Part shown: positions 15,831 through 43,255 of the stretch, piece by piece | Position numbering within the stretch: the first letter of the stretch is position 1 | How the letters are laid out: the number at the start of each line of letters is the position of its first letter | Source: Candidatus Bathyarchaeia archaeon | GTDB lineage: Archaea > Thermoproteota > Bathyarchaeia > 40CM-2-53-6 | Assembly: GCA_049517415.1 (NCBI GenBank) | Contig: JBEKSC010000004.1 | Span: 64,001-128,000, forward strand | DNA: 64,000 nt | Direction of reading: 5' to 3' | The notes under the pieces: generated by a model | What the model was told of the DNA's origin: nothing | Seen by the model: the letters and a program-made list of their open reading frames with translations, nothing else | Database searches by the model: none | Translations under genes and position numbers: made by a program

Positions 15831-16220
15831 CTAGTACGCTGATTCCCACAGGTCTACGGAATATTCGATGAAGTACCAGCCTGGGTACCAGTTTCCGGCT
15901 AGGATCGTGCTGTGTATGTCCCCCATTTTAGCGTTGAACGTCGTTACGCCATCTTGCATGTCGAATAGTCTCGTTACGCCGTCGCGCAAGCGTCGCAGCT
16001 TCGCCAGCTCATTGGCTGCCCAGGCGATCGTTGTTGCTCTGATTTCTCCTGAAACGGTGGCAGTACGGCCTTTATTCCATGCCGTTGAAGGCGTCCAATG
16101 GTCTACGTTTCGCGCAGGCACCACAGTGTCAAGTAATACCTGGTTGGCAGCGAAGTCAACTTCCAGAACGTGTTGAAAGACGACCGGGCCGAATTGAACT
16201 TTCGTTTCGTCGTCAGCCAT
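15831..16220 (-). CDS. Putative distal tail-like virion protein
   Basis: Last gene of the tail module; resembles the C-terminal domain of 16220-18139 ('GR..T..G.....A.EL'). Confidence 0.55.
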   Translation of the reverse strand: MADDETKVQFGPVVFQHVLEVDFAANQVLLDTVVPARNVDHWTPSTAWNKGRTATVSGEIRATTIAWAANELAKLRRLRDGVTRLFDMQDGVTTFNAKMGDIHSTILAGNWYPGWYFIEYSVDLWESAY

Positions 16221-18139
16221 CAGTCTATCGCCTCTTGAGCCACGAAGGAGTAATTGTAGATCGCGCCATCTTCCGCCTTCTTAGGTTTAGGCACGGACGA
16301 TACGTAGGCGTAGAAACTCTCGCCTGTTGGTAGCATGAAGAAATGCTTCGTGTTGTTTGCTAAGCCAAGAATCATTGCAAGCTCGCCGGCCAAGTCCGTC
16401 GTCCAACCGGTGATCGTTAATTTTCGTCCCTTACCACCCTGGTAGACCTCATTAGGCAACCCGTCGCTCGCCGGCAGGTTCGTCATATTCACGAGCTCAT
16501 CTAACTGAACGGTGAGAACGTGGGAGAACGACGTTCCGTCCACGCTAAGTTGTCCCTGCATCGTGTAGGCGAGTTCAACCGCTAAACCGATCTCGGGAAC
16601 GATTGGCACTGGCCACGGTACAAGGATATATTCTGTGAACGTTCCACTATCCGTAGACTTCAATGAGGCAAGGACGGATTGAGTTATTTCCGTACCTTGA
16701 GTTGATTCTCCAGTCGTTATCAGAGGGCCAGGTGTAAGCTTCTCCGTACCTGTGCCTGTTTCATTGATTCCGGGGCCTCCAGAAACGCTGGATCCGTGCG
16801 CTCCAGAACCTGTTTCAGTGATGGTAAATGATGCTGTTAGGCCCCAGCCTTCAACACCTAACCCGGAGTCGGCAACGGTGAAGGTTACGCTGAGAGCTGG
16901 CAGGTCGGTGCCGGAGCCTGTTTCATTAATCGCTGGGCCTCCAACGGTGCTAAGTAATTCAGTCCCAGCTACAGACTCGAACACGTCAACCTCCGTGTAG
17001 ACGGCGACCGTGAACACTTCACTAAAGACGCCTTCCTCTAACACAACTGGCGAGTAGTAGGGTAGAACGCCGGTGGTCCTGATGTCCGTTTCCGTGTAAG
17101 TGCCAACCTCAGTCACAGTCAAAATGTAGGTGGGGAAATCGTTTTCCGATCCGATGCCGCTTTCAGCCGCAATCGGCGTGTTGACGGGAGTAAGCGCTTC
17201 GGTACCGGTTCCACTCTCAGCAGGCGCTAGAACCGGTTGCAGAGACACCGTCAAATCAGTGCCTGTACCAGCCTCAGATGTGGAGATGAAATTTATCGCT
17301 TTGAATGTGGCGATGACCGCCACTCGATTGGCTTGGGCTCCTGAGTCGGTGTATGTGGTACTTTGTGTTCCGGTTGAAGTCACAATCTTATACATGTAAG
17401 CGCTGGTGGCAACATTAGACCCACCTGTACCGTCAAGCAACGTGTAACCGTTGCTTGGGCTTGATATTGAGGTCGCTCCTCCGTTCCAAGTTCCGGCGCT
17501 GACTACCACTAATTCATTGGCGAACGTTGTTGCGCCACTTGTTGAAATCGTTACGGGCGACGTGACATTCGCTACGGTCCCGTTTTGGTCTACTGGACTT
17601 ACTGTCGTTATGCCTGACCATTCGCAAACGTTGACTACTGCCAAACTGGCTGGATTGCCGCTTAGAGTCACGGTTATTGACTTAGAGGTCCCGCTACCAA
17701 TTAGCCCCCACCACAGTTCGCATTGTTCCCCAAAATTGGAGATCGAATTAACGTAAGTCCAAGTTACACCGGTTTGAGTTATGCCGGTGACAGCGAGATT
17801 CGTGCCACTGTTACCGCTGTTATTCGCGATAGCCAATATGAGTAAGTTACCGTTCGTAGGTGTACTGCCAAGTAAATTGGTGAATACAAGCGGGCTACTG
17901 GTCCCTGTGCCTCGATATGGACCTTGAACGAGAACGATGTTTGCTGCTGCGCCTCGAAGAAAAATTAGTCCCAGAATAGCGTCGCGCAGAAATTTCTCGT
18001 ATGCTTTCTCGTTCCAAGATGTAACGGGGTAGAGGATGGTTTGCTCGTACCCGACAGCGAGGGCTAGAATAGCGAGAGTTTGGACGAGATGCCTACGGCT
18101 AGTACCTCCATAGCATCTACTCTCCGACAAGGTTACCAC
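16220..18139 (-). CDS. Virion tail tip/fibre protein with E-x-G-x-G-x-E repeats
   Basis: 'GNLLILAI' beta domain, repeated 'E(S/T)G(T/S)GT(D/E)' units, position in the tail module; start uncertain. Confidence 0.7.
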   Translation of the reverse strand: MVTLSESRCYGGTSRRHLVQTLAILALAVGYEQTILYPVTSWNEKAYEKFLRDAILGLIFLRGAAANIVLVQGPYRGTGTSSPLVFTNLLGSTPTNGNLLILAIANNSGNSGTNLAVTGITQTGVTWTYVNSISNFGEQCELWWGLIGSGTSKSITVTLSGNPASLAVVNVCEWSGITTVSPVDQNGTVANVTSPVTISTSGATTFANELVVVSAGTWNGGATSISSPSNGYTLLDGTGGSNVATSAYMYKIVTSTGTQSTTYTDSGAQANRVAVIATFKAINFISTSEAGTGTDLTVSLQPVLAPAESGTGTEALTPVNTPIAAESGIGSENDFPTYILTVTEVGTYTETDIRTTGVLPYYSPVVLEEGVFSEVFTVAVYTEVDVFESVAGTELLSTVGGPAINETGSGTDLPALSVTFTVADSGLGVEGWGLTASFTITETGSGAHGSSVSGGPGINETGTGTEKLTPGPLITTGESTQGTEITQSVLASLKSTDSGTFTEYILVPWPVPIVPEIGLAVELAYTMQGQLSVDGTSFSHVLTVQLDELVNMTNLPASDGLPNEVYQGGKGRKLTITGWTTDLAGELAMILGLANNTKHFFMLPTGESFYAYVSSVPKPKKAEDGAIYNYSFVAQEAID

Positions 18140-18194
18140 GGCTTGAAATCGTGAGGGTGCTGAGCTGAAAGAAACTCAGCGAAGGAAAGAAAGC

Positions 18195-18826
18195 TTAGGC
18201 TAACGTGATCTGCACAGTAGCGATCCAGGAAGCTGCGGCCTTCAACTTATGTATTGAAGGTTTCCGCTAACCTTAGTGCCCATCGCTTGCTGCGCACGGT
18301 CCAGCATCGTTCCGCCACCGGCAGCCGCGTTGAAGATACCGATTTCATTCCACGCATAGTCGGCGACGGCGCTGGCAAAGGTTGCCTGCCAAGTCGCCAG
18401 CTGCGAAGATCCGAAAGTCGGGTATCCTCCATTCATGGCTGCGTATGCTTTGTTCGTGCTGGCTTGAAGTGCGACCTGTGTTGCTACTGCCGCGCTTGTG
18501 CTATCACCCACACCGATGTACGCGTTGACATTGTTGAATAGAGTTGCACCCGTCCCGGCTACTAGAGTCCAAAGTATGTTGATTCCAGCGTTCAGAAGGC
18601 AGTTGCCGCGGAATCGTTTGATGGCCAGTAATGTGTCGAACTGTCGCATGATCTCGTCTAGCCCTACGCCGTCTATGGCTGCGCGAGCCACACGGTCCTT
18701 GGGGTCCCTGAATTTGTGGATCGTGAACTGCGAATAGTGCTGGGCGTAGTCGTGTGCGCCGTATCGTTGGGCGACGCGGATGGCGGCTCTTGCAATAGCC
18801 CGATCTACTAGGTTCTGGCCTGTCAA
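18195..18826 (-). CDS. Minor tail protein, spliced (join 18826-18262, 18232-18195), 200 aa
   Basis: 'YIGVGD', 'ATF...A.YAWNEIGIFNAA.GG.ML.R' tail-protein pattern; intron removal gives C-terminus GTKVSGTSWIATVQITLA-stop. Confidence 0.8.
18233..18261 (-). other. 29-nt BHB intron in mRNA
   Basis: GCGG AA|A CCUUCAA-loop-UUGAAGG CCGC AG|C; removal restores the frame. Confidence 0.85.
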
Positions 18827-19008
18827 GTTCCCCCACCCTCCACATAGCGAGCGAGTTCTGCGATCACTGCGTTAGCGCTCATCATTAGGGCAGCAGAAAC
18901 AGGGCCCAGTTTCAGTGTGCCGTCTTGACTTGTCAGTATCAAGTTGCCGTTGACGTCCGACTGGAGAGTCCAATCGGCGTTCTGGACTGCGAAATTAAAA
19001 TAGCTCAT
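18823..19008 (-). CDS. Small viral hypothetical protein
   Basis: GGAGG RBS, stop overlaps the next start. Confidence 0.65.
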   Translation of the reverse strand: MSYFNFAVQNADWTLQSDVNGNLILTSQDGTLKLGPVSAALMMSANAVIAELARYVEGGGT

Positions 19009-19084
19009 AGAAATTTTTCCTCCACTTCCCTATCTACTTGTAAGGCGCTGCTGTTAGGAGGCGCCATCATTCAGTAACGAATGA

Positions 19085-21172
19085 TTATGCTGCCAGGGTG
19101 ATTCCGGCGCTGAGGTCGCTTAGCATTCGGCTTGAGGTTTCGTCAAGCTCCCACAGTTGAGGCATACGCCGGTTCAGGTCGATTGTGGCAATCGTCGGGT
19201 CACTTAGATCCCGCTGAATGCGAACCACGGTGTATAGGCCAGCTAACCCGAGGTCGGGAATGTTGACGGTAATCGAATCCTCAGGCCCGAAAGTGTCTGG
19301 AGGATTCGTGTCTCTCACAGTTATTTGGGCGATGAGTTCGGTGTTTTCGGAATCCGCGAGCATAGCCTGACAGGCTATGGCTAGGGTGGTTGCGTCGGTG
19401 ACGGTTTTCTGGAATGCCACCTGTTCAATTAAGCCGTATTTGTTGATGCTATCGCTGTCACTTTGAATGCTGACTATACCGTTTCCAACCAGGTACATTC
19501 GGTTGCCCATCGTGGAGAAATCTAGTTCACTCGTTGAGTCACCCACCGTATCGCCTTCATTGAAGGCAACGTTCGATGTGCCGCCTCCGAACTGCGAGGC
19601 GAAGTCAAGGGTCAAGTTCGGGTTGACTCGGTACGTCCAACCAATGAGGCCGCAAACCTGCTGGATCGCAGCGCGAAGCGTAACATCAGTGAAAAGTACG
19701 CTTGGTAACGTGATGCCCGTAGTGCCTAGCTGTCCCACCATTATGCCGCATTGGTAATTGGTTAGTAGGCTGTTGATGATGAACTCTGGGCTTGCCGCAA
19801 GAAACTCCGCTTCCTGAATTATTCGGGTGTCTAAGAGTTTGGAGGCGTCAGAACCTGAAAGAGTAATCTTGTACGAGCTGCCTATAGTTCGCTTAATATC
19901 CTCTAGGAGTCCAGCGTACTCTAAGACACCGTACCGATAGACCCGAACGATTCCCCGCGGCGTAAGCGTTGGATAATAACGCGGCAGGTCGAACGTGAAG
20001 GTTTCGATCTTCTGCTGATAGTTCTGCCCGTAATGACTTGTGCCACCGGTTCCACCCACATAGGAATACGGGCAGCCCTCAACGTATAGTTGGAAAGGCT
20101 GCGTTTCATCCGGTCCCTCAGCATCGTAGAATACGTGAACGTTGACGAAGCCGGTTGCAGCGCCCACGGTAGCGTCGCCCGTCCAAGTTGCTTGAACCAC
20201 AGCGAGGCCCGGGGTGGTCGAGGTGAGGGATACGACCGCTAACCCAGCGGCGCTTGTGGTCGCACTTGCCGCGCTGAGTGTTCCGAGGGAGGTTGAGAAG
20301 TTAATTGTTTTACTAGGATACGGTAACTTGGTAGCTAAATTGATCAGCGTAGCCGTGATAACTGCAGTTGTCGGCTGGGCTTTGGATGGGGCGTTCTTCT
20401 GGTAAATCTGAAAATTATCCACGGTGAGACTCAACGTTTGAAGCGGTGTCCAATTCCAAACGTCGCCGCCACACATTGTTTGAGGCTGCGTCTGCTCAAC
20501 TAAAGTTGAACCATCGGCGGCGTAGACCATCGCGTATATTTGCGCGGGCAAAGCAGCCCAAACACTCGCAAGACTGATGACGACTGATGTGGCGTTACCA
20601 GCACAGGTGGCAGACCCGACTAAGCCACCGCCGGGTCCAGCCGTGTAGAGTGAAACTTTCTGACCGCCAGCTAACCCAGTTATAGTTACATTGTTAGACG
20701 AGTAGATCAGTAGGTCCTCGACAGCGATCTCTACGCTTTGGCCAGAAGTATCGGGGCTAAGGGCGAAAGCGTAACCGATCTGAATTTGTTGCGTACCACC
20801 CGGTAGAGTACCCTGTATGCCTGTCCAAGCTGCTTCACCAACGGTACCGAAACTGGTGCTTCCCACTTTAAGTGCGGCAACGTTCGACCTACCTGCAGCT
20901 GGCGGAATTGGCGTCTTGTAATTCAGCCGGAAAACTGCGCCGGTTCCGAGGTTGAAGGACTGATAGAAGTAAGCGTAGGCTTCGAAGCACGCGTAGAAAA
21001 GAGCCCACGCGTTGCCGTTGCTGAACGCCGTAGTCTCAAAGAAACCTGGGACGGTGCATGTTCCCAGACTATAATTATCGTTGGGCGTATCCCAAATGGT
21101 GGTTTTCCAATTACCGAGCGAACTTAAATCGCTACTGTAAATGATGCCCGAGGACCGCTGTGTGAGCGTCAA
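19085..21172 (-). CDS. Tail tip/baseplate hub protein with an Ig-like (Big-1) domain
   Basis: Follows the tape measure gene; 'TINFSTSLGTL...TT...G.A.V.LTS..PG' Ig-like segment; hub-like C-terminal half. Confidence 0.7.
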   Translation of the reverse strand: MTLTQRSSGIIYSSDLSSLGNWKTTIWDTPNDNYSLGTCTVPGFFETTAFSNGNAWALFYACFEAYAYFYQSFNLGTGAVFRLNYKTPIPPAAGRSNVAALKVGSTSFGTVGEAAWTGIQGTLPGGTQQIQIGYAFALSPDTSGQSVEIAVEDLLIYSSNNVTITGLAGGQKVSLYTAGPGGGLVGSATCAGNATSVVISLASVWAALPAQIYAMVYAADGSTLVEQTQPQTMCGGDVWNWTPLQTLSLTVDNFQIYQKNAPSKAQPTTAVITATLINLATKLPYPSKTINFSTSLGTLSAASATTSAAGLAVVSLTSTTPGLAVVQATWTGDATVGAATGFVNVHVFYDAEGPDETQPFQLYVEGCPYSYVGGTGGTSHYGQNYQQKIETFTFDLPRYYPTLTPRGIVRVYRYGVLEYAGLLEDIKRTIGSSYKITLSGSDASKLLDTRIIQEAEFLAASPEFIINSLLTNYQCGIMVGQLGTTGITLPSVLFTDVTLRAAIQQVCGLIGWTYRVNPNLTLDFASQFGGGTSNVAFNEGDTVGDSTSELDFSTMGNRMYLVGNGIVSIQSDSDSINKYGLIEQVAFQKTVTDATTLAIACQAMLADSENTELIAQITVRDTNPPDTFGPEDSITVNIPDLGLAGLYTVVRIQRDLSDPTIATIDLNRRMPQLWELDETSSRMLSDLSAGITLAA

Positions 21173-21173: not shown

Positions 21174-23507
21174 TCATGTTACCGCCGTGTATTTGTAGCC
21201 TGAACCAAATTTTCTTTGCCGAATAATCTTCTGCTCAAGTATGCTTGCGACCGTTTGCCCATCCAACTGAACGACGGTTTGGTTCTGAAGTTGCATCGGG
21301 CCGGATCCTCCTTGGGAAGTTGGCGCTGCGGGTGGCGTTAGACCTGCGCCTATGGCTGCCTGTTGCGCCGGCGTTAGAACCTCCTCGCCGCCGTGAAGCA
21401 TGTAGATCCCCGTTGTGGGAACCATGCCGCCGAGTTGATAGCCTGGGCCTGTAAATTCTCCAAGTCCAGCCCCCGAAAGGCTCACGTTAATGCTGGTCAT
21501 AATCTCGCTGGGGATTTTGTCGAGCCAACTGATGACGTTTTGAATAACGCTGATCGCATCATCCGCAATCGTGGTGACAGTCGTTTCTATCATCGACGGA
21601 ATTGTAGAGATAACTGCGGTGACTTGGTCGAATCCAGTAACCGCATCCGAAACCACAGAACTAACAGTGATGTCCTTTGTGGACGGGATTGCCGCTAAAC
21701 CTGAGGTAACGGCGCCGAACGCTGCCTGCGCCCCACTTTGAATCTGCGACCATGTATTACTGAGAGCCGCAGCCACAGGCTGCACGGCCGTTGTTACTTT
21801 AGACCATAACGTTGAGCCAAGGTTAGTGTTGATTTGGTTTCCAATATTCAAAGTGGTAGTGGCCAGCGGCCCCATCCCGCTCGCTGCTGCGGTGGTCACG
21901 TCGTCCGTTCCAGTAGTCGTATCCTGGGTGGTCTTAGCCCAGAGGCCGTTCCACCAGTCGGTTAGATCTTGCCCCGCTGTCTGCGCGCCCTTCTGGATGC
22001 CCGTCGTGAAATTAGCCCAGTCCTGCTGGTACGTTTGAAGCCACCCGGGGGCGTTTTGTTCTTGGTTCGCGCCAGTGAAAATTTGGTCGGTCGGCGGGTT
22101 TAGGTTCTTTTGACTGAAAGCTTCGGGCGGTGGCGTTACATTCGTAAGTGTGGCCTGGTATGTCGGGGCGTTGGATTGAGGAATGACTTGGGCCGTCTGT
22201 GCAGTCGCGACGCCCATTGGTATGATGCCTACACTTTGAAGCCACTTCACATCGGTCATGATGGCGTTTAAGAAATCCATGCCCGTGATCGCGAGGTCGA
22301 GTGCTACTTCAATTGCGCCTTTAGCAACCTCAGAGACGAACCCCATGAGTTCAGTCAAGTCGCCAGAAGCCACGAACCCCGAGAAGACGCCCATGAATTT
22401 ACTCCACGTTGTCTGGACGCTTGGGTCGAGGGCTAGTGAAGTGATCCAGCTTGTGAATTTGGGCAGGTTGTCGTCAAGCCAACTGGTGAGGGATGTGAGT
22501 GTGGGGAGAAGCATGTCTCCAATTTGTATTTGGAGGTCGGCCCATTCGTTCGTGAGTTGCTGCTGCTTTCCCGCGTACGTGTCCAGCTGGGTTTGAGCTG
22601 CGCTCCCGAACTTATCGTTCAGCTGCGCCATAATGTCGTTGTAGTCTGACGCCTTAGCCGTTGCCCAGTCAAAGTTGATGCCCAGGGCGTGAGTTATGTC
22701 GTTCATCTGGGATGTGGTGATGGTGCCGGCTTTCCATGCGGTAACTAACTCGCCCGTAATCTGTGTCGCAGTCAGCTCTTTCCCGGTAGTAGTTGTGAGG
22801 CTGATTCCTGCCTGTTGAAGTATCTGTGTGAAGGGTTGTAGGGCGTTGACGCCGGCTTTCTGAATCGCAGCCGTTAAGTCGGCGGTTCCTTGTTTAAGAT
22901 CTGCGTTCGCCTTCGTCGTAGTCTGAATAATAATTCCGTACCGGGAGAGGGTGGTTGTGACACCGTCGAATGCTTTCCCGACAAGGTTCACGGCAGTGGT
23001 TAGGTCAAGATTCTTCGCGGCGGACAGGTTAGTTGCGACGGTCAGCGCTTGTTCCGCTTGCGTTGCGTTCATGCCGTAGGTTGCAAGAAGTTGCAGCCCC
23101 TGAACGGCAGCGGTTTGGCTGACGGTTGAAACCTGCTCTAAGCCCTGGACGAAGTTCTGGATCTGTGGTTGCTGCGCAGCCCAGGCGGCGCCGGTTAGGT
23201 GGAGGGATTGTTGAAGCATCGCCCACGCTGACTGTGAAGCTGCCGCAGCGGCTACGGCTTGTTGTATGCCTTGGACGACTTCGCCGATTCCAATAACCGC
23301 CGCGCCTGTCCATCCTGCAACCGCGAAGCCTTGCATCATCTGGCCGACTTGCGCGAAGCCTGGGCCGAGCTGCTGCAACTCCATACCCATTAGGCCCATT
23401 GAAGCGCTAATCTTCCCCATCACACTACTTGCTTCGTGACGGCGCCGTTTTTGTTACGGCTCTACCGCTTGGATGGCGAAGACTATACTTCCGATGTTTG
23501 TACTCAA
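21174..23507 (-). CDS. Tail tape measure protein, spliced (join 23507-23462, 23437-21174), 769 aa
   Basis: Long Ala/Gly/Thr-rich helical protein ('VGKAFDG...L.RYGI', C-terminal 'LHGGEEVLT', 'VQLDGQTVA'); TTG start with GGTGA RBS upstream of an intron. Confidence 0.9.
23438..23461 (-). other. 24-nt BHB intron in mRNA
   Basis: G CGGU AG|A GCCGU-AACAAAA-ACGGC GCCG UC|A C; carries an in-frame UAA; spliced product reads AIQAVDEASS. Confidence 0.85.
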
Positions 23508-23566
23508 ATCACGTTCACCTTCGTGGATGGTGTTTCTTAAAAATCGGAAGCCAGGTTCGTTGCAGG
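23497..23566. repeat. Imperfect direct repeat A, copy 1 (chaperone-GT end and tape-measure start)
   Basis: Matches 25336-25408 (tttgtactcaaatca..ttcaccttcgtggatg..). Confidence 0.85.
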
Positions 23567-23849
23567 GATGGTCCCATGTTGGCGCAAGCGCAAGAAGTCG
23601 AAAGGCTCCGCGAAGAAAACAGGGGACATAGAGAAATTTAATCGGCTAGAAAAAGTTGCCAATGAGATAATGATAAAGCAAGAGGAACGAATCAAGAAAC
23701 TAGAGACCGCATCAAGCCTCAAGGTCGAGCACCCAAGCCACGATAAGACGCCCGTATCCAAGGACAAGAAGCCTTAATCAAACTCTAGGGACGATAATTG
23801 GCTTTGTCGTCCTCCAATTCTGAAGACCCTATCCCGTTTTTCGCCATTC

Positions 23850-24364
23850 TCATGTGTTTATGGGAAGCTTGAAGTACATGAATGGCTCGCGCCGACCTTT
23901 CGGTTGATTTTCAGCCAGTTTGAATCCGCAATGTTCGTAGAAAGGAATAGACGCTATCTTTGCATTTAGTATCACAAATTGACATGCAACTTCCTCACGT
24001 ACTTTGGCAGCTGTGGCGATGGCATAGAGGCAGAGTATTCGGCCGACTCCCTTGCCTTGAAATTGCAGTTCAGTAGCAAGTCGTCCAATCATCAATGACG
24101 GATAGTATCGGTACGGCGTGTGCAACGGGCGGTGTTTTTCGTCAATGCTACTGACTTCGATGCTGCTCATACAAGACTCAAGAAGCCTGCAATTTGCGTG
24201 TTGAACAAGGCCAGATAAATGACAGCCGCGTGCTGAAGTTGCTGGTCTTTGGCTTGGTATCTTATGTAGTCATTAAGGTCTGAATTGCCGCAGTCAAAGA
24301 ACCCTGTGTCGTCAGCTATGCTTAGCTTGCGTAGGTTGATTTCTTCGACGGAAAAGATGGACAA
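23850..24364 (-). pseudogene. GNAT acetyltransferase toxin, frameshifted near 24170
   Basis: 'FDCGNSDLNDYI' in the first ORF; 'IGRLA....QGKGVGR' and 'FYE.CGF' in the second. Confidence 0.85.
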
Positions 24365-24373
24365 GAAAATAAG

Positions 24374-24502
24374 TTACTTCGGGAAGCGTTTCAAAGCCTC
24401 TTCGACTAATCTCTTCTGCGCTTCTGTCGGAGGCTCCGCTGCGTCTTTCAAGAACGCCTCTGCTTCCTTCCCCTTCAAGGTTGGGGGTGGATTTGGTAGC
24501 AT
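24374..24502 (-). CDS. Small putative antitoxin of the GNAT toxin (42 aa)
   Basis: Manual translation MLPNPPPTLKGKEAEAFLKDAAEPPTEAQKRLVEEALKRFPK with GGAGG RBS. Confidence 0.65.
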   Translation of the reverse strand: MLPNPPPTLKGKEAEAFLKDAAEPPTEAQKRLVEEALKRFPK

Positions 24503-24598
24503 TTTCGTATCCTCCGTTGTCCATTATATCATCATGATGACGATGCCATATAAGTCGTATGCTTGGAAATTAGAACCCTCTCGAACTTCGCTAAGCTG

Positions 24599-33077: not shown

Positions 33078-33083
33078 CCTCTC

Positions 33084-35161: not shown

Positions 35162-35270
35162 AACACATCACCAGGACAACTAGGGAGTTCAGTAGGTCCC
35201 GTGTTCAGCCTTAGTTGAGATTACATCCAGAAACGGTCGCGCTGAAAGCTTCGAAGGCAAGATGATGAAA

Positions 35271-35462
35271 CTTATGGGGATTACGTTATCGTTCAAATTC
35301 AGTCGCCCACACCATCACGATCACAACAACAAGTTGGAAGGTGTGAACGGAGAAATCAGGGACAGAGAACGCGTCATGCGAACCTTATAGAAAACGGATA
35401 CGCAATTCTTTCTGGTATGCAAATCTTCCACAGCTACGTGCGCCCCATCTGGGGCCGAACGA
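35271..35462 (+). pseudogene. Degenerate DDE transposase fragment
   Basis: 'NNKLEGVNGEIRDRERVMRTL' stop, then frameshifted 'MQIFHSYVRP'. Confidence 0.7.
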
Positions 35463-35474
35463 GAAAACTATTTT

Positions 35475-36524
35475 ATGCGCACAGGTTGGCTCTTGATGAG
35501 TATGAAGTCGCAACTAGTGGTAAGTGCGCTTCTCGTAGTGACAATAATTCTGTCGATCGCGTTACCTTGGTATCCAGTTGTCTTGAATTGGCAGAAGTAC
35601 ATGATTATGACTCCAAGTCTTGCAGTGGAGGGTGGCGGTTCGGGAGCGATTGGGGAGCCCACGGTTATCTACGAGAATGATGTTTGGAGAATGTGGTACA
35701 GCTGCAACGAGTGGCACCAGTCTCAAACTTGTTACGCTGAAAGTTCCGATGCCCTGCATTGGACGAAGTTTGGTAAGGTTACAGACCAGCGATTAAGCAT
35801 GATTGTAAGATACAACTCAACTACTCTGTTCTTTTACACTCGGGGCTTGTTGACCCAATATAGCCAAGATGGGATCCATTGGACTCACTTCGCACAGCAA
35901 TACGGCGTGTTGCCGCCGAATCAACCCTACGACAACTACAAGTGGAATCCTTCAGTTCTCCAGTTGCCGAACGGCACTTGGCTAATGTACTACGAATGCA
36001 CAGCCACCCTTGCCACCTTCCGTTCCTCTAGCTATTGGGCTTCATGCTTGGCATCGTCTCCTGACGGAATCCACGACTGGGTAAGGAACTCCGTGAATCC
36101 TGTGCTTGGCGGGAGGCGTCAAGGTTTCAGGGTTGGAAACCAAGATGTGCTTTACGACAGCGGGGTTTACTACATGTTTTGGAATGACTACTCTAAAGTG
36201 CCTTTGCAAATAGCGTTGTCAACCTCAACTGACGGCGTACATTGGACGCAGGTGTTCTGGAAGACGAGTCCGTTAATTGCTCGCACCATTGAAGGCAGTC
36301 GATTCGACCAGATTGGGGACCAGGAAGTGGTTGTTAGGCCAGATGGGATCTACGTTTTCTATGCCGCAACAGACAATATCGTTGGCTATGGACAAATCTG
36401 GCTTGCGAAACTACCGAACACAACATTACAACAGTTAGCCGGAGCAATTACCATAACGGAAAATGGCGTGGCTAGATCTGTAAAAAAGTGTAGCTTGCTG
36501 GGCCTAATGCTCAGACGTTGCTAA
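35475..36524 (+). CDS. Secreted five-bladed beta-propeller glycoside hydrolase-like protein
   Basis: 'EPTVIY....WRMWY', repeated 'S.DG.HW' boxes, N-terminal TM helix. Confidence 0.8.
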   Translation: MRTGWLLMSMKSQLVVSALLVVTIILSIALPWYPVVLNWQKYMIMTPSLAVEGGGSGAIGEPTVIYENDVWRMWYSCNEWHQSQTCYAESSDALHWTKFGKVTDQRLSMIVRYNSTTLFFYTRGLLTQYSQDGIHWTHFAQQYGVLPPNQPYDNYKWNPSVLQLPNGTWLMYYECTATLATFRSSSYWASCLASSPDGIHDWVRNSVNPVLGGRRQGFRVGNQDVLYDSGVYYMFWNDYSKVPLQIALSTSTDGVHWTQVFWKTSPLIARTIEGSRFDQIGDQEVVVRPDGIYVFYAATDNIVGYGQIWLAKLPNTTLQQLAGAITITENGVARSVKKCSLLGLMLRRC

Positions 36525-36632
36525 AAGATGGGGAATGAAAACTGGTCAACCGACAACTACACGTCTTACTTGATTGACTTCGTTATGATCGTCTGTTGCG
36601 AGCAGTAAATTCTAGACCGAAAGCGTAGAGCG

Positions 36633-36743
36633 CTAAGTTTGCATGCACCAAATGCATTTTTTGATGATTGTACCGTCGGCTGCCTCAACTGTAGCGAGGG
36701 GATAGCCGCAGTAGGGACAGTATCCGGTTGAGGCAGTGCTCAA
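36633..36743 (-). CDS. Small zinc-finger peptide (36 aa)
   Basis: Manual translation from TTG: STASTGYCPYCGYPL...KKCIWCMQT. Confidence 0.45.
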   Translation of the reverse strand: MSTASTGYCPYCGYPLATVEAADGTIIKKCIWCMQT

Positions 36744-36995
36744 GCTTTCATCAGCAAACTAGGGACTGAAACTCTCTTCAAGCGTGGCTTTCGGCGTCTT
36801 GTGCGGAGGATTCCTACCGGGCGCATGCTCACCGCTTGGCTGCAGGCCGCGGCGTCGTATTCCCTTCTTTCGATTCTCTCAAGTTGTCGTCGGCGCCTTC
36901 CTACTTTGTCGTTGTCAAGTTTCGCCGGGTGGGTTGCGGTGTTCTGGATTAGAAAAACTTCTGATGTCCGACCACCACAGACATTATCTCTTAAC

Positions 36996-37751
36996 TCACT
37001 CAAGGCGTTGCGATATGCGATGCGGCCAGTCACACTCAACCGAAAACCTTTGTCTAATCTCAACTGTAATTATGTCTGATTTCACCGTCCCATCTTCGTT
37101 TAGCATTGGAGAAAATAACAAGTCTGTCGAAGCAAGAAACATTGTAGTCGCCTCGATCTTATTGTAGACTTCCGTTAGACAGGCTGCTTCGGCGAGTATG
37201 GTTTGGTCGTTAAGACTTGGCGATTTACCTAGAAGCCGTCTAAGCTGCGTCCTATCAACCAAAAATTGCCTAGCGTATATGTTTGAAGCAATGCCTCTGA
37301 GATATGGGGGTACTGTCGTTAGGCGGCTTTTCACATGACTCCTCACCTTAGAACCCGCCGTCTGTCTTGCCGCACCCAACAGTTTTCCGTACATGGTCAC
37401 AACATCCCCTAATCTTTCGGCCAACCGTGACTTATTCGTGACATCCACCATAGCTAAACAACCAAGAAGCTCGTGCATCCTGTCCCAACAAAGGTTCAGA
37501 ACCGTGGAGCGTATTTCATTTGAAAGGCTTGGATTGAGACGCTGTGTAACAGCACTGTTTAGTTTGTGTGATGCCTCAATTTCGACAGTTTTGGTTACAA
37601 GTCCAATTTCACGATGGGCTTTCAGATATCCAAAGAGCCGCATTGACCTATCGAAGTGGGTGTCCTTGAACTGAACAACGCCTGCCTTCGCCGCGTAAAT
37701 CGAACCAGACAGTAAAACCGATGTCTCGATGAGAACCTTATTGTCAGTCAG
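36996..37751 (-). CDS. Divergent PIN-domain protein (probable CTG start)
   Basis: Open frame upstream of the listed ATG gives 'KVLIETSVLL'; 'D..ILAEA' and 'FLASTD..F'. Confidence 0.7.
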   Translation of the reverse strand: MTDNKVLIETSVLLSGSIYAAKAGVVQFKDTHFDRSMRLFGYLKAHREIGLVTKTVEIEASHKLNSAVTQRLNPSLSNEIRSTVLNLCWDRMHELLGCLAMVDVTNKSRLAERLGDVVTMYGKLLGAARQTAGSKVRSHVKSRLTTVPPYLRGIASNIYARQFLVDRTQLRRLLGKSPSLNDQTILAEAACLTEVYNKIEATTMFLASTDLLFSPMLNEDGTVKSDIITVEIRQRFSVECDWPHRISQRLE

Positions 37752-38256
37752 AAGTCGTCATCGGCTTCAATAACTCGTCGAAGGCCGTAATCAACTTCGC
37801 CTTGTCCACTCCCTTCAGGTTATCCCTAGGGTCAATCATTTGGACTGCCCGGGCAGATGAACGCAATTCGCGCACATAATTCATCACATCGTCTGAATTA
37901 GTTTGAGTTGGGTCGCTTTCCATGGACACGAGAGTCGCGATTGTCGTAAGAATGCGCGGAAAAATCATTCTTGCTTGTTCGACTACGAGAGGGTTGTCAT
38001 GTGCCACGTGTGCCTGCGCGAATCTTACGCGCATCTTGGAGAATATCAGTCGAAGGTTTCGCCAAGAGTGATACATTGTGAAGTTAGCAGGTGAGGGGTT
38101 TGCATTTCCCCAAAATTGTTCTTGTTTGCTAGAATACATGACCAAATGGTCGAGATGTGGCCCGATTTTCCTGTCAACTTTACCTACCCTTTGCATAGCT
38201 GCGAGTCGTGATTCGACTATCGCGGCTTCATCAATCAACTTTCCGAAATCGGGCAT
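37744..38256 (-). CDS. Hypothetical helical protein, partner of the PIN-like gene
   Basis: Overlaps the downstream gene start. Confidence 0.65.
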   Translation of the reverse strand: MPDFGKLIDEAAIVESRLAAMQRVGKVDRKIGPHLDHLVMYSSKQEQFWGNANPSPANFTMYHSWRNLRLIFSKMRVRFAQAHVAHDNPLVVEQARMIFPRILTTIATLVSMESDPTQTNSDDVMNYVRELRSSARAVQMIDPRDNLKGVDKAKLITAFDELLKPMTTSD

Positions 38257-38437
38257 TTCCCAACGCCGAACTTATGCGAACTACACCTGGTGGAGTACTA
38301 GTTTCCGCTGTCACTTTAATAGACTTGCTTTAGTGACCTCATCCGAACTGTATATAATGCGGCTAGTTTGATAGATTATTGTTGTTTTCTCGTAATCCTT
38401 TGAACCCACGAAGACTTGACAAGGCCCTTCTTTCCCA

Positions 38438-38575
38438 TCATGCTTCACTGAGAACCATTGATGGGCGCCTCGCACGTAGCTGCAGATCCCGTATGTCTAG
38501 GAGTACCTCGAGGCGGAGAGCGTCGAGTGGGTTTCCGGACTTTGCGTCGGCTTCGATTTCTTTTCTCGGTCTCAT
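38438..38575 (-). CDS. Small viral protein (45 aa)
   Basis: ATGA overlap with the portal stop; 'LEVLLDIRDL'. Confidence 0.55.
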   Translation of the reverse strand: MRPRKEIEADAKSGNPLDALRLEVLLDIRDLQLRARRPSMVLSEA

Positions 38576-40230
38576 TGTCCTTCTAGCTCTTGTTGTTCCG
38601 TTTCCTCTTTGACTTCAGCGGGGGATTCCGGCTCTTCAGTTGCTGGGCCGGTTGGGCTAGGTGGCTGCGTTGCTACCGGCTCTTTGACCTCCGCGGGGTC
38701 AAAAGCGGAAGAGGGTCCATCCCGCATGATCTCGTACGCCTTCTCTAAGTTCACGAATCCCAGCCCACCGTCGTAGGCAACTGAGACTGCGGTGAGGAGT
38801 GCGAAGAAGTCGGTTGTGCGAATCTCACGCCACCGATGCCGCACACGCACCGGCGGATCCTGGCCCGTGGGAGTCTTGAGGTAGAAGCGTGTCAGAGGGT
38901 CGTACCATTGCTGCTCAACAATAAGCTGCACCCACCGTTGAATAGCCGTTATTGGGCCATCGACAAAGGACTCCAGTTGACTATAGCTTGTTGCCCGGTT
39001 CACGGCTTCGGTGCGATTAAGAATGAATTTCGGAACCTGAAAGTTCCCAATGATCTCCTGGTCTAGGTCGGTCTTGACTGCGACGAGGCCTGGGAGGTCA
39101 GGCTTGATGTCGATAACCTGAACGGTCCAACGATTGTCTGTGGCAATATGCTTTCCAGGACGCAGCGATGCGATGTGCGTGTTAATGAGGTCCTGCACGT
39201 CGGCGTCGGTTAATCCGGCAGGCAGGCGATCCACATCTAGGCTGTGTATGGCTATGCCGGCCCAGAGAGTTGTCGCAGCCTCTTGGAGGTCTTCTATGCG
39301 GATCTTGGCCCTGGTGATCACGTCGTCTAGGACTGGTTCGATCTCGCTGAGGCCTTCCCAATCTGATTCGAGAGAGTTGTTTGTGAAATAGAGTAACTCG
39401 CTTGGTTTGTAGAAGTCTTTTTGGCCACGCCACCAGAACCCTTGCAGCACCCAGTCCTCGTCGACGTCGGGGCGCAGGTCGTAGATGGTTAGGAGTGGGA
39501 GGGAGATTAGGCGATTCGGTTCCATCTTCGCGTTGAGTTCAATTTCGAAACCTTTCTTGCCGTAAATCTTGGCACCGATGATGCCGGCATACAGAACATG
39601 GTCGAGGTCGACGCGGAGGTTGATTTTGTCAATCCACTGTTTCAACGGCAAATTATCAGCAATGATCTTTTCCTCTTGCTGCGGGGTTAGGCCTTCGCCG
39701 ACCGGTTCCAGAACAGCGTCGAAAGACTCCTTCGTGGTCCAGTAGGCGAGGGCGTTGATGCAGCCGCGCACGAGCGCATCCATACGATAGGCGCGGTAGT
39801 GCTTCTCCATCCCCTTGTAAGCGTCGAAGATGGTTTGCGTCATCCCAAGATAATATTGGGACTTGGCGGCTGAGAGCTGACGACTCAGAGGGAGGCCGCT
39901 TAGTTGCATTGCGGCTGCTTCAGCAACACGCCTCGAGCTAGAATGAACAGCAATACGAACGCCTTGGGGCGTTCCTAGATACGGGAAGGAGATCGTGTTC
40001 TCTTTCACTGTAACGCCTGGGATCCGTTCGAGAGCTGAGAAGTCGCCGAGGCCACTTGAACCGGCGACCCTGGTCCCTGCTAAGGGACGATGGTCTCTCA
40101 CCTCGGCCCGTTTGGTGGCCATCATCGGCCGCTTAGTTGTCGCGTTTCGCTTGTTTGTTACGGAACGCTTACGCCGCTTACGAGGCGGTGGTTTGTTCTT
40201 TGCCTTAGTCATTTCTTTTCGAAGACCCAA
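38572..40230 (-). CDS. Portal protein
   Basis: Follows the terminase; 'ELLYF......EGLSEIE', 'IIGNFQVPKFIL....NRATS'; start uncertain. Confidence 0.85.
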   Translation of the reverse strand: MGLRKEMTKAKNKPPPRKRRKRSVTNKRNATTKRPMMATKRAEVRDHRPLAGTRVAGSSGLGDFSALERIPGVTVKENTISFPYLGTPQGVRIAVHSSSRRVAEAAAMQLSGLPLSRQLSAAKSQYYLGMTQTIFDAYKGMEKHYRAYRMDALVRGCINALAYWTTKESFDAVLEPVGEGLTPQQEEKIIADNLPLKQWIDKINLRVDLDHVLYAGIIGAKIYGKKGFEIELNAKMEPNRLISLPLLTIYDLRPDVDEDWVLQGFWWRGQKDFYKPSELLYFTNNSLESDWEGLSEIEPVLDDVITRAKIRIEDLQEAATTLWAGIAIHSLDVDRLPAGLTDADVQDLINTHIASLRPGKHIATDNRWTVQVIDIKPDLPGLVAVKTDLDQEIIGNFQVPKFILNRTEAVNRATSYSQLESFVDGPITAIQRWVQLIVEQQWYDPLTRFYLKTPTGQDPPVRVRHRWREIRTTDFFALLTAVSVAYDGGLGFVNLEKAYEIMRDGPSSAFDPAEVKEPVATQPPSPTGPATEEPESPAEVKEETEQQELEGQ

Positions 40231-40445
40231 ACCTTACTCAACAGGAAGTGGACGGTGCCCCCGATGATTGTGGTGAGCTCATAGAATCCCACATCAACCG
40301 CATTGAACCGGTACAACAGCACGGTCCAGAACAGGTCCGGTAGCTGGCCCTTCAAACCGTAATAGAGCACGGTGCTAACCGAAACACCAACGAGTCCGCT
40401 GACACCGAACTTCAGCAACTGCAGGAGTACGTGCTTCGCCGACAA
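40209..40445 (-). CDS. GtrA-like two-TM membrane protein
   Basis: 'QLLKFGVSGLVG' and 'HFLLSKVWVF'; TTG start. Confidence 0.7.
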   Translation of the reverse strand: MSAKHVLLQLLKFGVSGLVGVSVSTVLYYGLKGQLPDLFWTVLLYRFNAVDVGFYELTTIIGGTVHFLLSKVWVFEKK

Positions 40446-40452
40446 TTGAGCC

Positions 40453-41902
40453 TCAACCAAACGATCGTGAGTACGGTTTGAAACCAGGGACCGTTGGGCC
40501 TCTTGTTGCGAATACGGCCAGGGCGACGGCCCAGGTGCGGTCGTCATGGGTACCGTCTGGGTGGCTGTACTGAATCTTGCCTGCCTTCGTGAGTTGGAAC
40601 CGTTCAATGTTCAGTTCGTTGGCTACATCGAGTTGGTAGGCGATTAGGAGCCGTTTCTGTTGCATCATCATCTTGAGGAAGTTCATGATGTCTTGCTTGG
40701 ATGACTCCGAGAGCATTATGCCCCCGACGTGGGGTACTGATTTCTTCGCTTCTTCTACGACGCTCTCTCCAACGCCGGTCTGGTCCATGAGAATCTTGTG
40801 GATGGTTTGCAGTTTCTGGTTGAGGACTTTGAGGAAGCTGATGACGCCTGTCTCGCCTGTGTAGTCTGTTCCGAGCGGGAAGATCTTCAGGCCCACTAGG
40901 CGGAAGATGTCACCGTCCTTCCTTATGACTGCCACGACACTGTAGTCGACTTTCTTCCCGAGGTCGACGCCGACCCAGTAGTCAGCGCGGGAGGTCTGGG
41001 GGGAGGTCTGTTGACCAGAAGCTGTGGAGTTCGCCGCCAAATTCCTTAATCTCCATTTCCGGATCCGTACAGCCAGTGATTAGCGAAGTAGGGAGCCAGC
41101 AATCGTCGTCTTCGCTCCACTCTGCTTCCATCTCACGGCGCCAACGCCACGGGTCGCTGGCGAACTGTTTCTTGATCTTCGCAAGGATCCCTTTCTTCAG
41201 GGGTCCGTTTGGTTCCAGGGCTTGTTCCCAGTTGACATGGTGACGGCTGTAATCATCGAACTCAGGGTCGTTGCAAATTTTATAGAATATGTGATTGCGG
41301 GACCAGGGCGTCGAGTTAGCGATGAAGAAACCGTTCGTTGTCCCAAGTGTGAAAAGAATAGCGTCGTACAGGTCGACGTCGTCACGGACGAAGTTGAACT
41401 CTGTCGCCAGGATTCCATTCAATGTTGGCCCGCGTATGGTGTCGGGGTTGCATGGGTAGGCTTCGATGATTGAGCCGTTGACTAGGGAGACCTTCGTCTT
41501 CAGCGGTTTCCTTCCGACTAGGATTTCCCGGTAGGGGACATCCTTGGGAAGGCTCTGTTGGATGAATGAGTTGATCTTGCGAATTACCAGCTTGCTTTGC
41601 CGAAAGCTGGGACCCACAACGGCCAGCTGCACTCCATCGTTGGCGACGGCGTACCAGAAGAGCTTGCTGCAAGCTGCGTAGTCTTTCCCCGACTGCCTGG
41701 ACCACAGCTGGGCGATGAATTGCGCCTTGTCTTCGAGGAACTCGACCTGGTATTTCGTGGGTTCGAATCCCAGGGCCTCCTTGCAGAATGCTACCGGGCC
41801 CTTCGCAGCGATCCGCTGTAACCGTTGAAACGCCCCGGTGACTTCGACAACACCTCTGTGGCGTTCCTCAACTTTCTTTTCGAGTTTTCGCCGCCAAGCC
41901 AT
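40453..41902 (-). CDS. terL: Terminase large subunit, split between ATPase (41902-40982) and nuclease (41040-40453) frames
   Basis: 'SRQSGKD' Walker A, 'IRG', 'STP', 'GVDLG', 'DQTGVG', 'HDD...A.ALA'. Confidence 0.9.
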
Positions 41903-42395
41903 CCGAGTCTACCCCTAGCTCTTTGAGGAGGGCATCGACGAATGCATCGTCAGTGTGTTTGAGAATCATGAGTTCTGTTCGCATCAGCCCGTTTGCGACA
42001 CGCAGCGCCAGCAACCTGGCCTCAGCATCCTTCGCAGCGTCCTCGGTCTTGCTGTACAAGACGGCTGCCTGGACGGCCTTCCAGGTGAGTTCCTCGAGGG
42101 CACTTCGTTTTTCGACCCCCGGCAGCTGTGCGTCTTTCTCAGCCTTCATGGGAACCTTGGTTGGATTTTGTCTCTCAAGCTGGGCACGGGTGATGAACTC
42201 CCTGGTGAGGCGTGTTAGGTCCTCAAGGTGTCTGACACCTAATGAATGGGTGTCTGACACCCCTCGTAGATGTTCTTCTACAACCACCCGCAAGTACTCT
42301 CCGACTGGTTGACCCTTCTGCCTGGCCAGGAGACGGATGGCTAGGTCCTTCTTCCTGGAAAGGCGGAATGTTAAACGGGGATTTCCTTTTGACAT
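41868..42395 (-). CDS. Putative terminase small subunit with RHH-like N-terminus
   Basis: Immediately upstream of and overlapping TerL; 'RLTFRLS......LA...G....EYLR'. Confidence 0.6.
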   Translation of the reverse strand: MSKGNPRLTFRLSRKKDLAIRLLARQKGQPVGEYLRVVVEEHLRGVSDTHSLGVRHLEDLTRLTREFITRAQLERQNPTKVPMKAEKDAQLPGVEKRSALEELTWKAVQAAVLYSKTEDAAKDAEARLLALRVANGLMRTELMILKHTDDAFVDALLKELGVDSDGLAAKTRKES

Positions 42396-42397
42396 GG

Positions 42398-42660
42398 TTA
42401 CTTTGCCCCGGCATCCTTCATGGCTTTTAGCGCTGTCTTCTTGACCTTCTTCGCTGCGACCATCACGTTGTTGGCCACCAGGCCAGCGTACATCGCTGCA
42501 GGGACCAGGATCGTGGCCGCGGCCACCTCGGGTGCCTTCCATCGGTACGCCATCCACCACGCGATGCCCAGGATGGCACCGGGGACGACGACCAGTTTCA
42601 GGAGTAACGCGGCGCTCAGATCCTGCGCAAAACCCTCTCTAGCCGCGACAAACGTTACGG
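42398..42660 (-). pseudogene. 5'-truncated membrane protein gene
   Basis: Hydrophobic frame 'ALLLKLVVVPGAILGIAWW...GLVANNV' ending just before TerS, no start seen. Confidence 0.5.
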
Positions 42661-42663
42661 CAG

Positions 42664-42966
42664 TTAATCGCGAGAGTCCGCATTTGAATCCTTTAGCAAT
42701 AGATTTGTCGATGACCGCACGTGGCCCACGTGATTTTCCCGATTGGCGTTATTCGAATTCTCTAAGCGCGACAACGGAAACTCAGTACCCTCCGGCACGA
42801 GGACGATTGCCGGGCCAAACAGGCGCACTAGATACTCTACGGATCGGTCCACTTGGTCTCCTATCGCGACCGGTAGGTACAGGAGGTAACGCTTGCAACG
42901 GTAACGCCCCTTCCGCATGTACCGCTTCCAATACCAAACCAACCGAATACGAGCTATACTCCACAC
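42664..42966 (-). CDS. Small basic hypothetical protein
   Basis: Basic/aromatic ORF co-oriented with the viral genes. Confidence 0.5.
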   Translation of the reverse strand: MWSIARIRLVWYWKRYMRKGRYRCKRYLLYLPVAIGDQVDRSVEYLVRLFGPAIVLVPEGTEFPLSRLENSNNANRENHVGHVRSSTNLLLKDSNADSRD

Positions 42967-43255
42967 ACAACTCGGCCATTAGAATCAGCATCAAGAGCCA
43001 AACAAGCCACCGAAAATTCACATATCCAATACAACCATAAAACCAGCGAGACGCCCACTAACCACCCCGAGACTTCAAGGAAAGTAAAATGAATTGTACG
43101 TGTGGATCCGCGGGCGTAACTAGTGCACTTGTGGTATTCTACTCATGCTGTCACCCCACCGGCGGCGGGAGGAGGGTACTCCTAAATACTCCTGTCATCA
43201 TGACGACGCTGTTTGGCTATAGAATCGCTATAGCTAGGTTGAGGTCGAAGTCGGG

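Follow-up and report, generated by a model that had tools for sequence, protein, structure and literature searches.

Gene transfer agents (GTAs) are controlled by their host and are inherited vertically at a locus that is conserved across the host clade. Among archaea, the chromosome of Nitrososphaera viennensis contains a provirus, Nvie-Pro1, with a tailed-virus morphogenesis cluster. In Bathyarchaeia, viruses and proviruses of the Caudoviricetes ('Fuxiviridae', 'Kunpengviridae') have been described, and the available text of these reports counts eight Bathyarchaeia among 38 archaeal proviruses (PMC10848311, PMC11705971). In the same available text, proviruses were selected by the presence of an integrase, a direct repeat, and a tRNA, and a defective archaeal provirus kept its replication genes and its integrase and lost its packaging genes (PMC11705971). 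Here, we describe a locus in a 64-kb stretch of DNA (hereafter the window; G000:C4:64001-128000, all positions below being window positions) from the Bathyarchaeia genome G000, which comprises 2.65 Mb in 59 contigs. A colinear set of packaging, head, and tail genes occupies the minus strand from 15831 to about 43090, as determined from open reading frame (ORF) calls, Pfam, PHROG, NCBIfam, and Foldseek. In our assessment, the region 15831-43090 is very probably an integrated, now defective, siphovirus-like tailed virus (Caudoviricetes, HK97-fold) of the Bathyarchaeia type in a peat archaeon.

The first line of evidence is a deletion. Relatives of the element have an early module of ten genes, which encode a metallophosphatase-like protein, a helix-turn-helix protein, a D12-class Dam methylase, a Zn-ribbon protein, a 290-residue protein of unknown function, further unknown proteins, and a DUF5658-like membrane protein. 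This module is present in G021, G041, G042/L016, and L026, and partially in G043 and G044, whose contigs begin inside it; it is 95-99% identical between G021 and G041, and its methylase is also found upstream of the terminase large subunit (TerL) in G039, L018/G045, L019, and L022. In blastn comparisons, window positions 42437-42611 align to G021 9539-9365 and positions 42622-43089 to G021 3358-2906, such that approximately 6 kb of G021 correspond to some 10 nucleotides in the window (42611-42622). What remains is the end of the last module gene (Table 1), and no other early-module remnant beyond residues 74-138 of that gene was found in the G000 genome. Because relatives contain a 6-kb module where the window has a 65-codon stub, the window copy is a deletion derivative. 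PDB sequence searches with three early-module proteins gave no useful match, and the ESM Atlas returned only unnamed clusters with scores below 0.9; the module is presumably required for replication or gene expression.

The second line of evidence is a lesion in the gp10-like tail-completion gene. In six relatives (G021, G041/L025, L027, G042/L028, G043/L024, and L018), gp10 is an intact single frame that ends in WAFQ and a stop codon. In the window, the first 70 or so codons are in one frame and the remainder, including the WAFQ C-terminus, is in the next; both the alignment and the sequence attribute this shift to one extra T in the T-run TTTTTT at 28675-28680. Contigs from four public runs (2017, 2018, 2020, and 2025) span at least 26366-43386 with no differences and no indel, and the lesion is therefore real in the population. 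An earlier sequence-only reading of this DNA had counted frame disruptions in TerL, gp10, and the GT extension of the tail assembly chaperone as evidence against function; that of gp10 is a true frameshift, but the other two are conserved features of the virus clade.

Apart from gp10, all structural genes are full-length in comparison with relatives (19 of the 20 compared). For these 20 genes, the ratio of non-synonymous to synonymous substitutions (dN/dS) against the closest relative, G043, is 0.015-0.29, with dS values of 0.43-3.3 that are saturated for the most diverged genes; since this ratio is pairwise and averaged over both lineages, it is dominated by the history of the virus. These values are well below the ratio near 1 that the sequence-only reading had named, together with a patchy distribution, as the outcome that would speak against it. 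Because the other structural genes are intact and under strong purifying selection with respect to relatives, the disabling appears to be recent. The GC content of the viral backbone (0.53-0.55) resembles that of its relatives (0.54-0.55), unlike that of the G000 genome as a whole (0.501), and the inserts have a GC content of 0.46-0.48. Decay is thus slight, with one lesion and one deletion, and this, together with the unameliorated GC content, indicates a recently disabled provirus and not an old resident, contrary to the long residence that had been proposed. The course of events would be as follows: the early module of ten genes and about 6 kb was deleted, leaving the 65-codon stub; as its early genes are gone and a neck gene is broken, the element would no longer be capable of a lytic cycle of its own; and three cargo or toxin-antitoxin cassettes entered intergenic sites, probably by recombination with related virus DNA.

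Several observations weigh against this conclusion. PF00589 integrases were detected in none of five IMG/VR relatives (four classed as provirus, one as linear) and not on the portal-bearing contigs of G021, G110, G163, G039, and G155; the one candidate, an ORF in G039 roughly 5 kb beyond the tail genes, resembles an integrase only weakly (24.9 bits, cut-off 27.1). Hence, among the relatives searched, none has a clear integrase or att site, and an integrase loss in the window copy would be conjectural. Likewise, no free viral genome of the family was seen among the five IMG/VR relatives, and several metagenome relatives lie in contigs of 0.1-1.1 Mb. The four runs that contain the gp10 lesion may stem from one campaign and may include the source sample. 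In addition, this is the sole inactivating lesion in approximately 21 kb of structural genes, and, as it affects a homopolymer, it could revert or be slipped over. Finally, the functions of the early module could not be named, and its necessity is something that we infer.

Some of these points would be expected of a provirus that can still be mobilised, or of a helper-dependent element that receives early functions in trans and bypasses the gp10 lesion through slippage on the T-run or reversion. The full length of the other structural genes, the position of the lesion in a T6 homopolymer, and the abundance of related viruses in the same habitats all agree with this, as does a recent mosaic exchange: the MazE/RelE cassette is shared with G043 at 94-96% amino acid identity and a dS of 0.12-0.15, versus at least 0.43 for backbone genes. 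However, G000 has no second related element, only a distant fused TerL on contig C16 (34-39% identity), and the contigs reveal no T-run length variant, though contigs hide rare variants. Moreover, in four runs the depth of the element equals that of the flanking host DNA, which fits a fixed chromosomal copy, contig depth being a weak measure. An element of this kind is therefore improbable, and the features expected of an intact temperate provirus are lacking: the integrase and att sites are absent by search, the early module is deleted, and gp10 is frameshifted.

On one side, the element is flanked by host sugar-metabolism genes, namely a glycosyltransferase (10972-12066), an epimerase, a UDP-glucose dehydrogenase, and a galU-like nucleotidyltransferase (14760-15683), and on the other by an antitoxin-like cassette and a PMT-family gene (43987-45501). 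The near-complete packaging, head, and tail set that the sequence-only reading had placed between a galU-like gene and PMT is borne out by profile matches and by colinear relatives. In G004, orthologues of the glycosyltransferase (82% identity) and of PMT (77-80%) are adjacent and form an empty site; therefore, window positions of roughly 12.1-44.0 kb are an insertion relative to G004. In G014, other sugar genes are found at the site. The element lies in a variable glycosylation island adjoining the PMT gene. Its left end is marked by a conserved non-coding stretch, which includes a terminator-like hairpin (43041-43063) with a second copy at 43884-43926; these hairpins were read from a scan of which only the hairpin output was used, its sigma-70 promoter output having no meaning for an archaeon.

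The spread of the element is patchy. Counting G000, 4 of 41 related genomes carry the capsid gene; among the others, it occurs in one of 22 of the genus (G021, 69% identity), in neither of the two from the rest of the family, and in 2 of 16 from the rest of the order. The portal gene is present in 32 of 301 sampled genomes of the class including G000 (31 of the 300 others), in 13 of 108 genera, and in one of 43 genomes of the host's own family. The contig of the G021 copy shares nothing with the window outside the element. That copy (contig C29) and the IMG/VR record G041 share approximately 28 kb, much of it at 95-96% identity. To the left of the shared block, G021 (L006 1-2900) has a CBASS Cap15 effector and a TIR gene, and G041 (L031) has two N6/N4 methylases, AIPR, and DUF3800; to the right, homology stops before both contigs end. 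Judging by this comparison, the element may have moved recently, or else may carry variable defence cargo at its end.

This distribution bears on the proposal that the locus is a domesticated GTA-like element, in which the host would keep the morphogenesis genes to make particles that package host DNA. Such an element would explain why only morphogenesis genes are present, with no integrase, att site, or recognisable replication gene, why all structural genes but one are intact and under purifying selection, and why runs dated 2017 to 2025 show a stable sequence; the relatives searched are also without a clear integrase. On the other hand, vertical inheritance at a conserved locus is not what was found: the element is rare in both genus and family, the one further copy in the genus is found on a different contig, where its flanks also differ, and the site in G004 is empty. 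The morphogenesis-only state stems from a visible deletion that cut through a gene, the tail-completion gene is frameshifted, the GC content is not ameliorated, and pairwise dN/dS mostly reflects the history of active relatives. Domestication is therefore highly improbable, and of the two possibilities raised by the sequence-only reading, GTA-like element or decaying provirus, the second holds, with decay that is slight and recent. That reading had also held that complete integrase-bearing relatives would reveal a deletion derivative; larger relatives with the early module do exist, but no clear integrase was found in them. A misjoin of viral and host contigs during assembly of this metagenome-assembled genome (MAG) is hardly credible, since, despite 6.86% contamination of the MAG and contig breaks near 43.4-43.8 kb in several other assemblies, a contig of run X5 spans 25000-43633 without difference, overlapping unitigs of four runs reach 44900, the window runs into host genes syntenic with G004 on both sides, and related TerL genes are found in metagenome contigs of up to 1.1 Mb.

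As had been noted from the sequence, integrase and att repeats are absent: contig C4 has no PF00589 match, the six matches in G000 being on C2, C3, C9, and C16, and no direct repeat of at least 10 nucleotides links the ends of the element. Other recombinase families were absent from a Pfam scan of the ORFs of the cluster, no genome-wide search having been made for them. At the ends shared by G021 and G041, there is no repeat of at least 11 nucleotides, direct or inverted. The tRNA mentioned in the sequence-only reading could not be recovered, as ARAGORN finds no tRNA gene in the window. In peat and wetland metagenome runs from 2017 to 2025, every sampled word of the stretch was found in 20 of the 24 runs listed.

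The genes of the virion and of its packaging machinery (Table 1) comprise an HK97-fold capsid protein, terminase ATPase and nuclease, a portal, and a tail module with tube, frameshift chaperone, tape measure, and distal tail genes, as in Caudoviricetes. No sheath gene was found in the cluster, and for this reason the virus is considered siphovirus-like. The tail tube model, built from six homologues (pLDDT 62.8, pTM 0.65), gave 26 PDB matches at E<=0.001 in Foldseek, all of the tail-tube type (phage 812, siphophage R4C, monocin, lambda gpV, SPP1, and RcGTA). The 100-residue ORF next to the left end has no Pfam or NCBIfam match and is possibly a regulator.

Table 1. Features of the element and its insertions, in order from the left end of the element; percentages are identities to relatives.
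Feature	Position	Strand	Evidence or content
Antitoxin-like cassette between element and PMT	43091-43883	+	HicB-like 43256-43468; MazE-like 43538-43849
Left end of element, conserved non-coding stretch	42978-43090	-	blastn homology to G021 and G041 stops here
Small conserved ORF, 100 aa	42664-42966	-	85%/88% aa identity in G021/G041 vs 81% DNA identity
Deletion scar: last 65 codons (residues 74-138; 42416-42610) of last early-module gene (DUF5658-like membrane protein)	42416-42622	-	
TerS candidate, 230 aa	41868-42560	-	position upstream of TerL; 68-69% in G043 and G044; no family match
TerL ATPase ORF, 306 aa	40982-41902	-	PF03237 28.2 bits (cut-off 22); phrog_2 E 4.7e-29
TerL nuclease ORF, +1 frame	40453-41040	-	PF17289 30.2 bits (cut-off 22.6)
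Small membrane protein between TerL and portal	40209-40607	-	77-84%; residues 55-131 conserved; no family match
Portal protein, 552 aa	38572-40230	-	PF04860 26.8 bits (below cut-off 39.1); phrog_9232 E 4.7e-6; position; 74-90%
Cargo insert at portal/scaffold site, GC 0.482	35170-38570	mixed	GH32-like 35475-36524 (+); unknown ORFs 36996-37643 and 37744-38256 (-)
Scaffold/maturation protein, 548 aa (protease role only putative)	33515-35161	-	position; DUF6582 26.0 bits (cut-off 27.3); phrog_3313; 65-73%
Head decoration/cement-like protein	33084-33518	-	PF09956 E 0.0018, 19.1 bits (below cut-off 24); L022 homologue E 3.3e-9
HK97-fold major capsid protein, 329 aa	32088-33077	-	TIGR01554 30.7 bits (cut-off 27.5); PF05065 22.4 bits (just below cut-off 24.2); phrog_1650, phrog_10
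Head-tail connector/neck genes and small ORFs	28909-31808	-	colinear, 60-86%; ORFs 31512-31808, 31029-31508 (phrog_27112), 30395-30778, 30059-30378, 29585-30052, 29137-29583, 28909-29130
gp10-like tail-completion gene, frameshifted	28528-28908	-	PF04883 22.8 bits (cut-off 21.4); phrog_5
Tail tube protein	28060-28521	-	AlphaFold model and Foldseek
Small conserved gene between tube and chaperone	27700-28029	-	52-74%
Two toxin-antitoxin cassettes	25986-27699	mixed	MazE/RelE 27099-27631 (-); UPF0175/PIN 26061-26863 (+)
Tail assembly chaperone: G 25506-25889 and -1 frame T extension 25357-25551	25357-25889	-	slippery CCCAAAA
GNAT and DUF5678 cassette between T extension and tape measure gene	23552-25332	.	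GNAT ORFs 23850-24170 and 24167-24364; DUF5678 24953-25168
Tape measure protein, 749 aa	21174-23423	-	TIGR01760 31 bits (cut-off 28.8); phrog_58, phrog_991
Distal tail/fibre genes	15831-21172	-	PF06605 36.2 bits (cut-off 31.3); phrog_23653; colinear in G043; ORFs 19085-21172 (Prophage_tail domain and Ig-like), 18823-19008, 18242-18826, 16220-18139 (fibre-like), 15831-16220 (last gene)

TerL is encoded in two frames. The ATPase ORF stops at a TGA (40984-40982), and the conserved part of the nuclease (D-Y-W-V-G-V-D-L-G-K-K) follows directly after this stop in the +1 frame; the sole in-frame canonical start of the nuclease ORF in the window is a TTG at 41040. Among the best 120 of 1218 ATPase homologues, 107 are 203-319 residues long and 13 are 453-495 residues long, and all of those above approximately 62% identity are short. 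In total, 50 TerL loci were examined (38 from metagenomes, 10 from IMG/VR, G021, and G039), and both halves were present in 45, of which 33 are split and 12 fused, one fused locus being cut by the locus end. The fused TerLs are all at most 66% identical to the window ATPase. The same nuclease type also occurs, again as a split pair, with a different type of ATPase that is only 36% identical. In some sources, TerL homologues from this clade carry the label 'FluMu gp28-like'.

In 13 distinct junctions of the window type, the ATPase frame always ends in (D/T)LPR followed by TGA, and the +1 frame from the next base reads D-Y-W-(V/A)-G-(V/L)-D-L-G-K-(K/R). Over the 90 nucleotides before the stop, these junctions vary at 13, 11, and 25 sites at the first, second, and third codon positions of the ATPase frame, respectively; over the 90 nucleotides after it, the corresponding counts in the nuclease frame are 9, 4, and 25. 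In the last 30 nucleotides before the stop, the nuclease frame has counts of 5, 9, and 5, that is, no excess at the third position. The variation on either side of the stop therefore implies that selection switches frame there. Both halves are under purifying selection, with dN/dS of 0.11 and 0.10 versus G042. The frame change thus appears, from this comparison of sequences, to be normal for the virus clade and no sign of decay in the window copy.

How the two frames are expressed can be considered from the same junctions. Production of two chains, with ATPase and nuclease as separate polypeptides, is somewhat favoured. Separate initiation would account for the ATGA stop/start overlap in G039 and the TAG-A-TTG in L051, for the spacers of 192 nucleotides in L018/L050 and of about 300 nucleotides with a small ORF in G021/L025/L027, and for the canonical start that lies 11-16 codons ahead of the catalytic Asp in several lineages; some in-frame start exists in 31 of the 33 split loci. 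A programmed +1 recoding at the stop (CGN-UGA-Y), which would yield a fused TerL, is possible but clearly less likely. This mechanism would explain why the nuclease frame abuts the ATPase stop exactly, why L026/L029 have no canonical start before a GTG that directly precedes the catalytic Asp, and why the subclade of the window has no start other than a TTG, 25 codons upstream and within sequence unconstrained in that frame. It is more doubtful still that TerL is made in another way or is non-functional. In addition, the tail of the ATPase ORF (SFW-xx-DL) resembles a worn duplicate of the first strand of the nuclease (xF[YW]-xGxDLG), which suggests that the split may have arisen by out-of-frame tandem duplication.

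The host-type introns proposed in the sequence-only reading could not be substantiated. Rfam gave no match in the window at the gathering score and none in 41500-46500 at E<=1, and the TerL junction folds no better than its shuffles (z -0.25 and -1.0). A relaxed scan of this junction for bulge-helix-bulge motifs gave only five weak matches; in the best, the central helix contains two G-U pairs and is flanked by 3+4 pairs, and its sequence differs in about half of the 13 junctions and has coding periodicity. A 40-nucleotide intron that would join HSFW to VGVDLGKK was rejected, as most of the variation in this stretch falls on third codon positions of the ATPase frame.

One sublineage has a conserved ORF of about 90 residues (...VAFYHTADGLWWARIRQDKVEFDATLTV...) between the ATPase and nuclease ORFs (L025 8926-9234, L027 2936-3228, and L006 (G021) 10817-11164).

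The tail assembly chaperone likewise changes frame. The end of the G frame reads GGC CCA AAA GCC and continues to a TGA, and the heptamer C CCA AAA is identical in all five sequences shown (window, G043, G021, G042, and G045). The -1 frame extension is conserved (...FAEGSVYSAPLEVLV...IFKKQHPRR), at 47-86% amino acid identity, and ends just ahead of the tape measure gene; in every relative that has both parts, the T frame equals the G frame minus one. These features identify what appears to be a canonical programmed -1 frameshift and not damage.

Relative to G021, G041, and G042, additional DNA is found in the window between genes of the element, at three sites, and at one site beside it. These insertions fall between structural genes and never inside one; the sequence-only reading had observed that most insertions spare the structural ORFs. 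The gap between portal and scaffold is a cargo hotspot, with a 455-residue ORF in G021, transglutaminase and CBM96 genes in G044, almost nothing in G042, and 3.4 kb in the window; the GH32-like gene of the window insert has a 68% paralogue on G000 contig C6. Each toxin-antitoxin-type cassette is bordered on both sides by direct repeats of the local target sequence that are long and imperfect (43-185 nucleotides, 85-93%). For the UPF0175/PIN cassette, these are 25804-25985 and 26884-27071 (about 185 nucleotides, 85-93%), the second being a defunct duplicate of the chaperone 5' end; for the GNAT/DUF5678 cassette, which is not in G021, G041, G042, or G043, they are 23494-23551 and 25333-25390 (58 nucleotides, 88%); and for the HicB-like/MazE-like cassette, 43016-43058 and 43884-43926 (43 nucleotides, 86%), the repeat here being the terminator-like hairpin. 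The repeats are not high-copy in the G000 genome. They differ from the target duplications of transposons and fit single-crossover insertion of circular DNA from a related element. Repeats that are long and diverged are what a circle inserted in this way would leave behind, and recombination with DNA from related viruses is therefore the probable route of entry for the cassettes. The low dS of MazE/RelE points to recent exchange with a G043-like virus, as far as sequence divergence can tell.

Within the GNAT/DUF5678 cassette, the GNAT acetyltransferase (23850-24364, minus strand) consists of two ORFs with a 4-nucleotide overlap that match phrog_1758 at profile positions 11-69 and 88-175; it may be either a frameshifted pseudogene or a split toxin gene.

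Other features of the host genome and of relatives were also observed. In the host flank, further toxin-antitoxin modules with PIN domains lie at 48127-48928 and 50312-50746, which brings the number of toxin-antitoxin-type modules in the 64-kb window, counting those in or beside the provirus, to at least six. Two adjacent plus-strand ORFs at 45992-47755 (310 and 271 residues) have no family match; the first is very rich in Thr, Val, and Ser after a hydrophobic N-terminal segment. They lie in a stretch of strongly negative GC skew (-0.18 to -0.23), are missing from the corresponding place in G004, and have the appearance of surface or glycosylated proteins. The PMT gene is intact in the window, and its orthologues have in-frame stops in G021:C37:3647-5035 (two TAA) and in G004:C33:47532-48883 (one TGA, the gene being split). 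In G039, the region upstream of the related element includes a TBP gene. Contig C16 of G000 contains a second, unrelated provirus-like region at about 40.2-47.3 kb, in which the fused TerL (C16:42376-43647; 34-39% identical to the window halves) adjoins three PF00589 matches (C16:40197-41708) and a 45-residue TerL-C fragment (76%) is found at 47167-47301.

The finding itself is ordinary, as it concerns a defective provirus and no new archaeal GTA. What it adds is a family of tailed viruses of Bathyarchaeia that would escape published provirus screens reliant on an integrase, a tRNA, and direct repeats: going by the available description, such a selection would overlook an element of this type by design, since it has no integrase (PMC11705971). 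The element also illustrates cleanly how toxin-antitoxin cassettes enter a provirus, with long, diverged direct repeats on both sides. Of the side results, the conserved two-frame TerL of the clade is the most interesting and deserves follow-up. A limited literature search on split terminases returned nothing on a two-ORF TerL in archaeal viruses, which is no proof that none has been published. Within the reach of that search, +1 recoding, if true, would be an undescribed recoding site both in a terminase and in an archaeal virus, and a two-chain TerL, the tamer reading, would itself be unusual. More generally, what seems to be a broken TerL can be normal throughout a virus clade, and this bears on automated calls of provirus completeness.

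Several known systems can be compared with this locus. The G/GT frameshift of the lambda tail assembly chaperone is a textbook system, and no difference from it was found: the window has an X XXY YYZ heptamer (CCCAAAA) near the end of the G ORF and a -1 T extension directly upstream of the tape measure gene, a canonical arrangement that here occurs in an archaeal virus. With bacterial cryptic or defective prophages, the element has in common that an early or regulatory region is lost, that a structural gene carries a point frameshift, that toxin-antitoxin and other cargo has accumulated, and that inheritance with the host is stable; it differs in that its host is an archaeon and its decay very limited. 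Like RcGTA, it is a head, tail, and packaging cluster without integrase or replication genes, and its tube model matches that of RcGTA among many others; unlike RcGTA, it is patchy, its site is empty in a relative, and its content is due to a recent deletion. The defective archaeal provirus mentioned above, as far as its description is available, has the reverse pattern of loss (PMC11705971). When set side by side with the viruses and proviruses of Bathyarchaeia by their available descriptions, the element resembles them in host class, HK97 capsid, portal, TerL, tail tube, tape measure, integrated state, and toxin-antitoxin or defence cargo (PMC10848311, PMC11705971).

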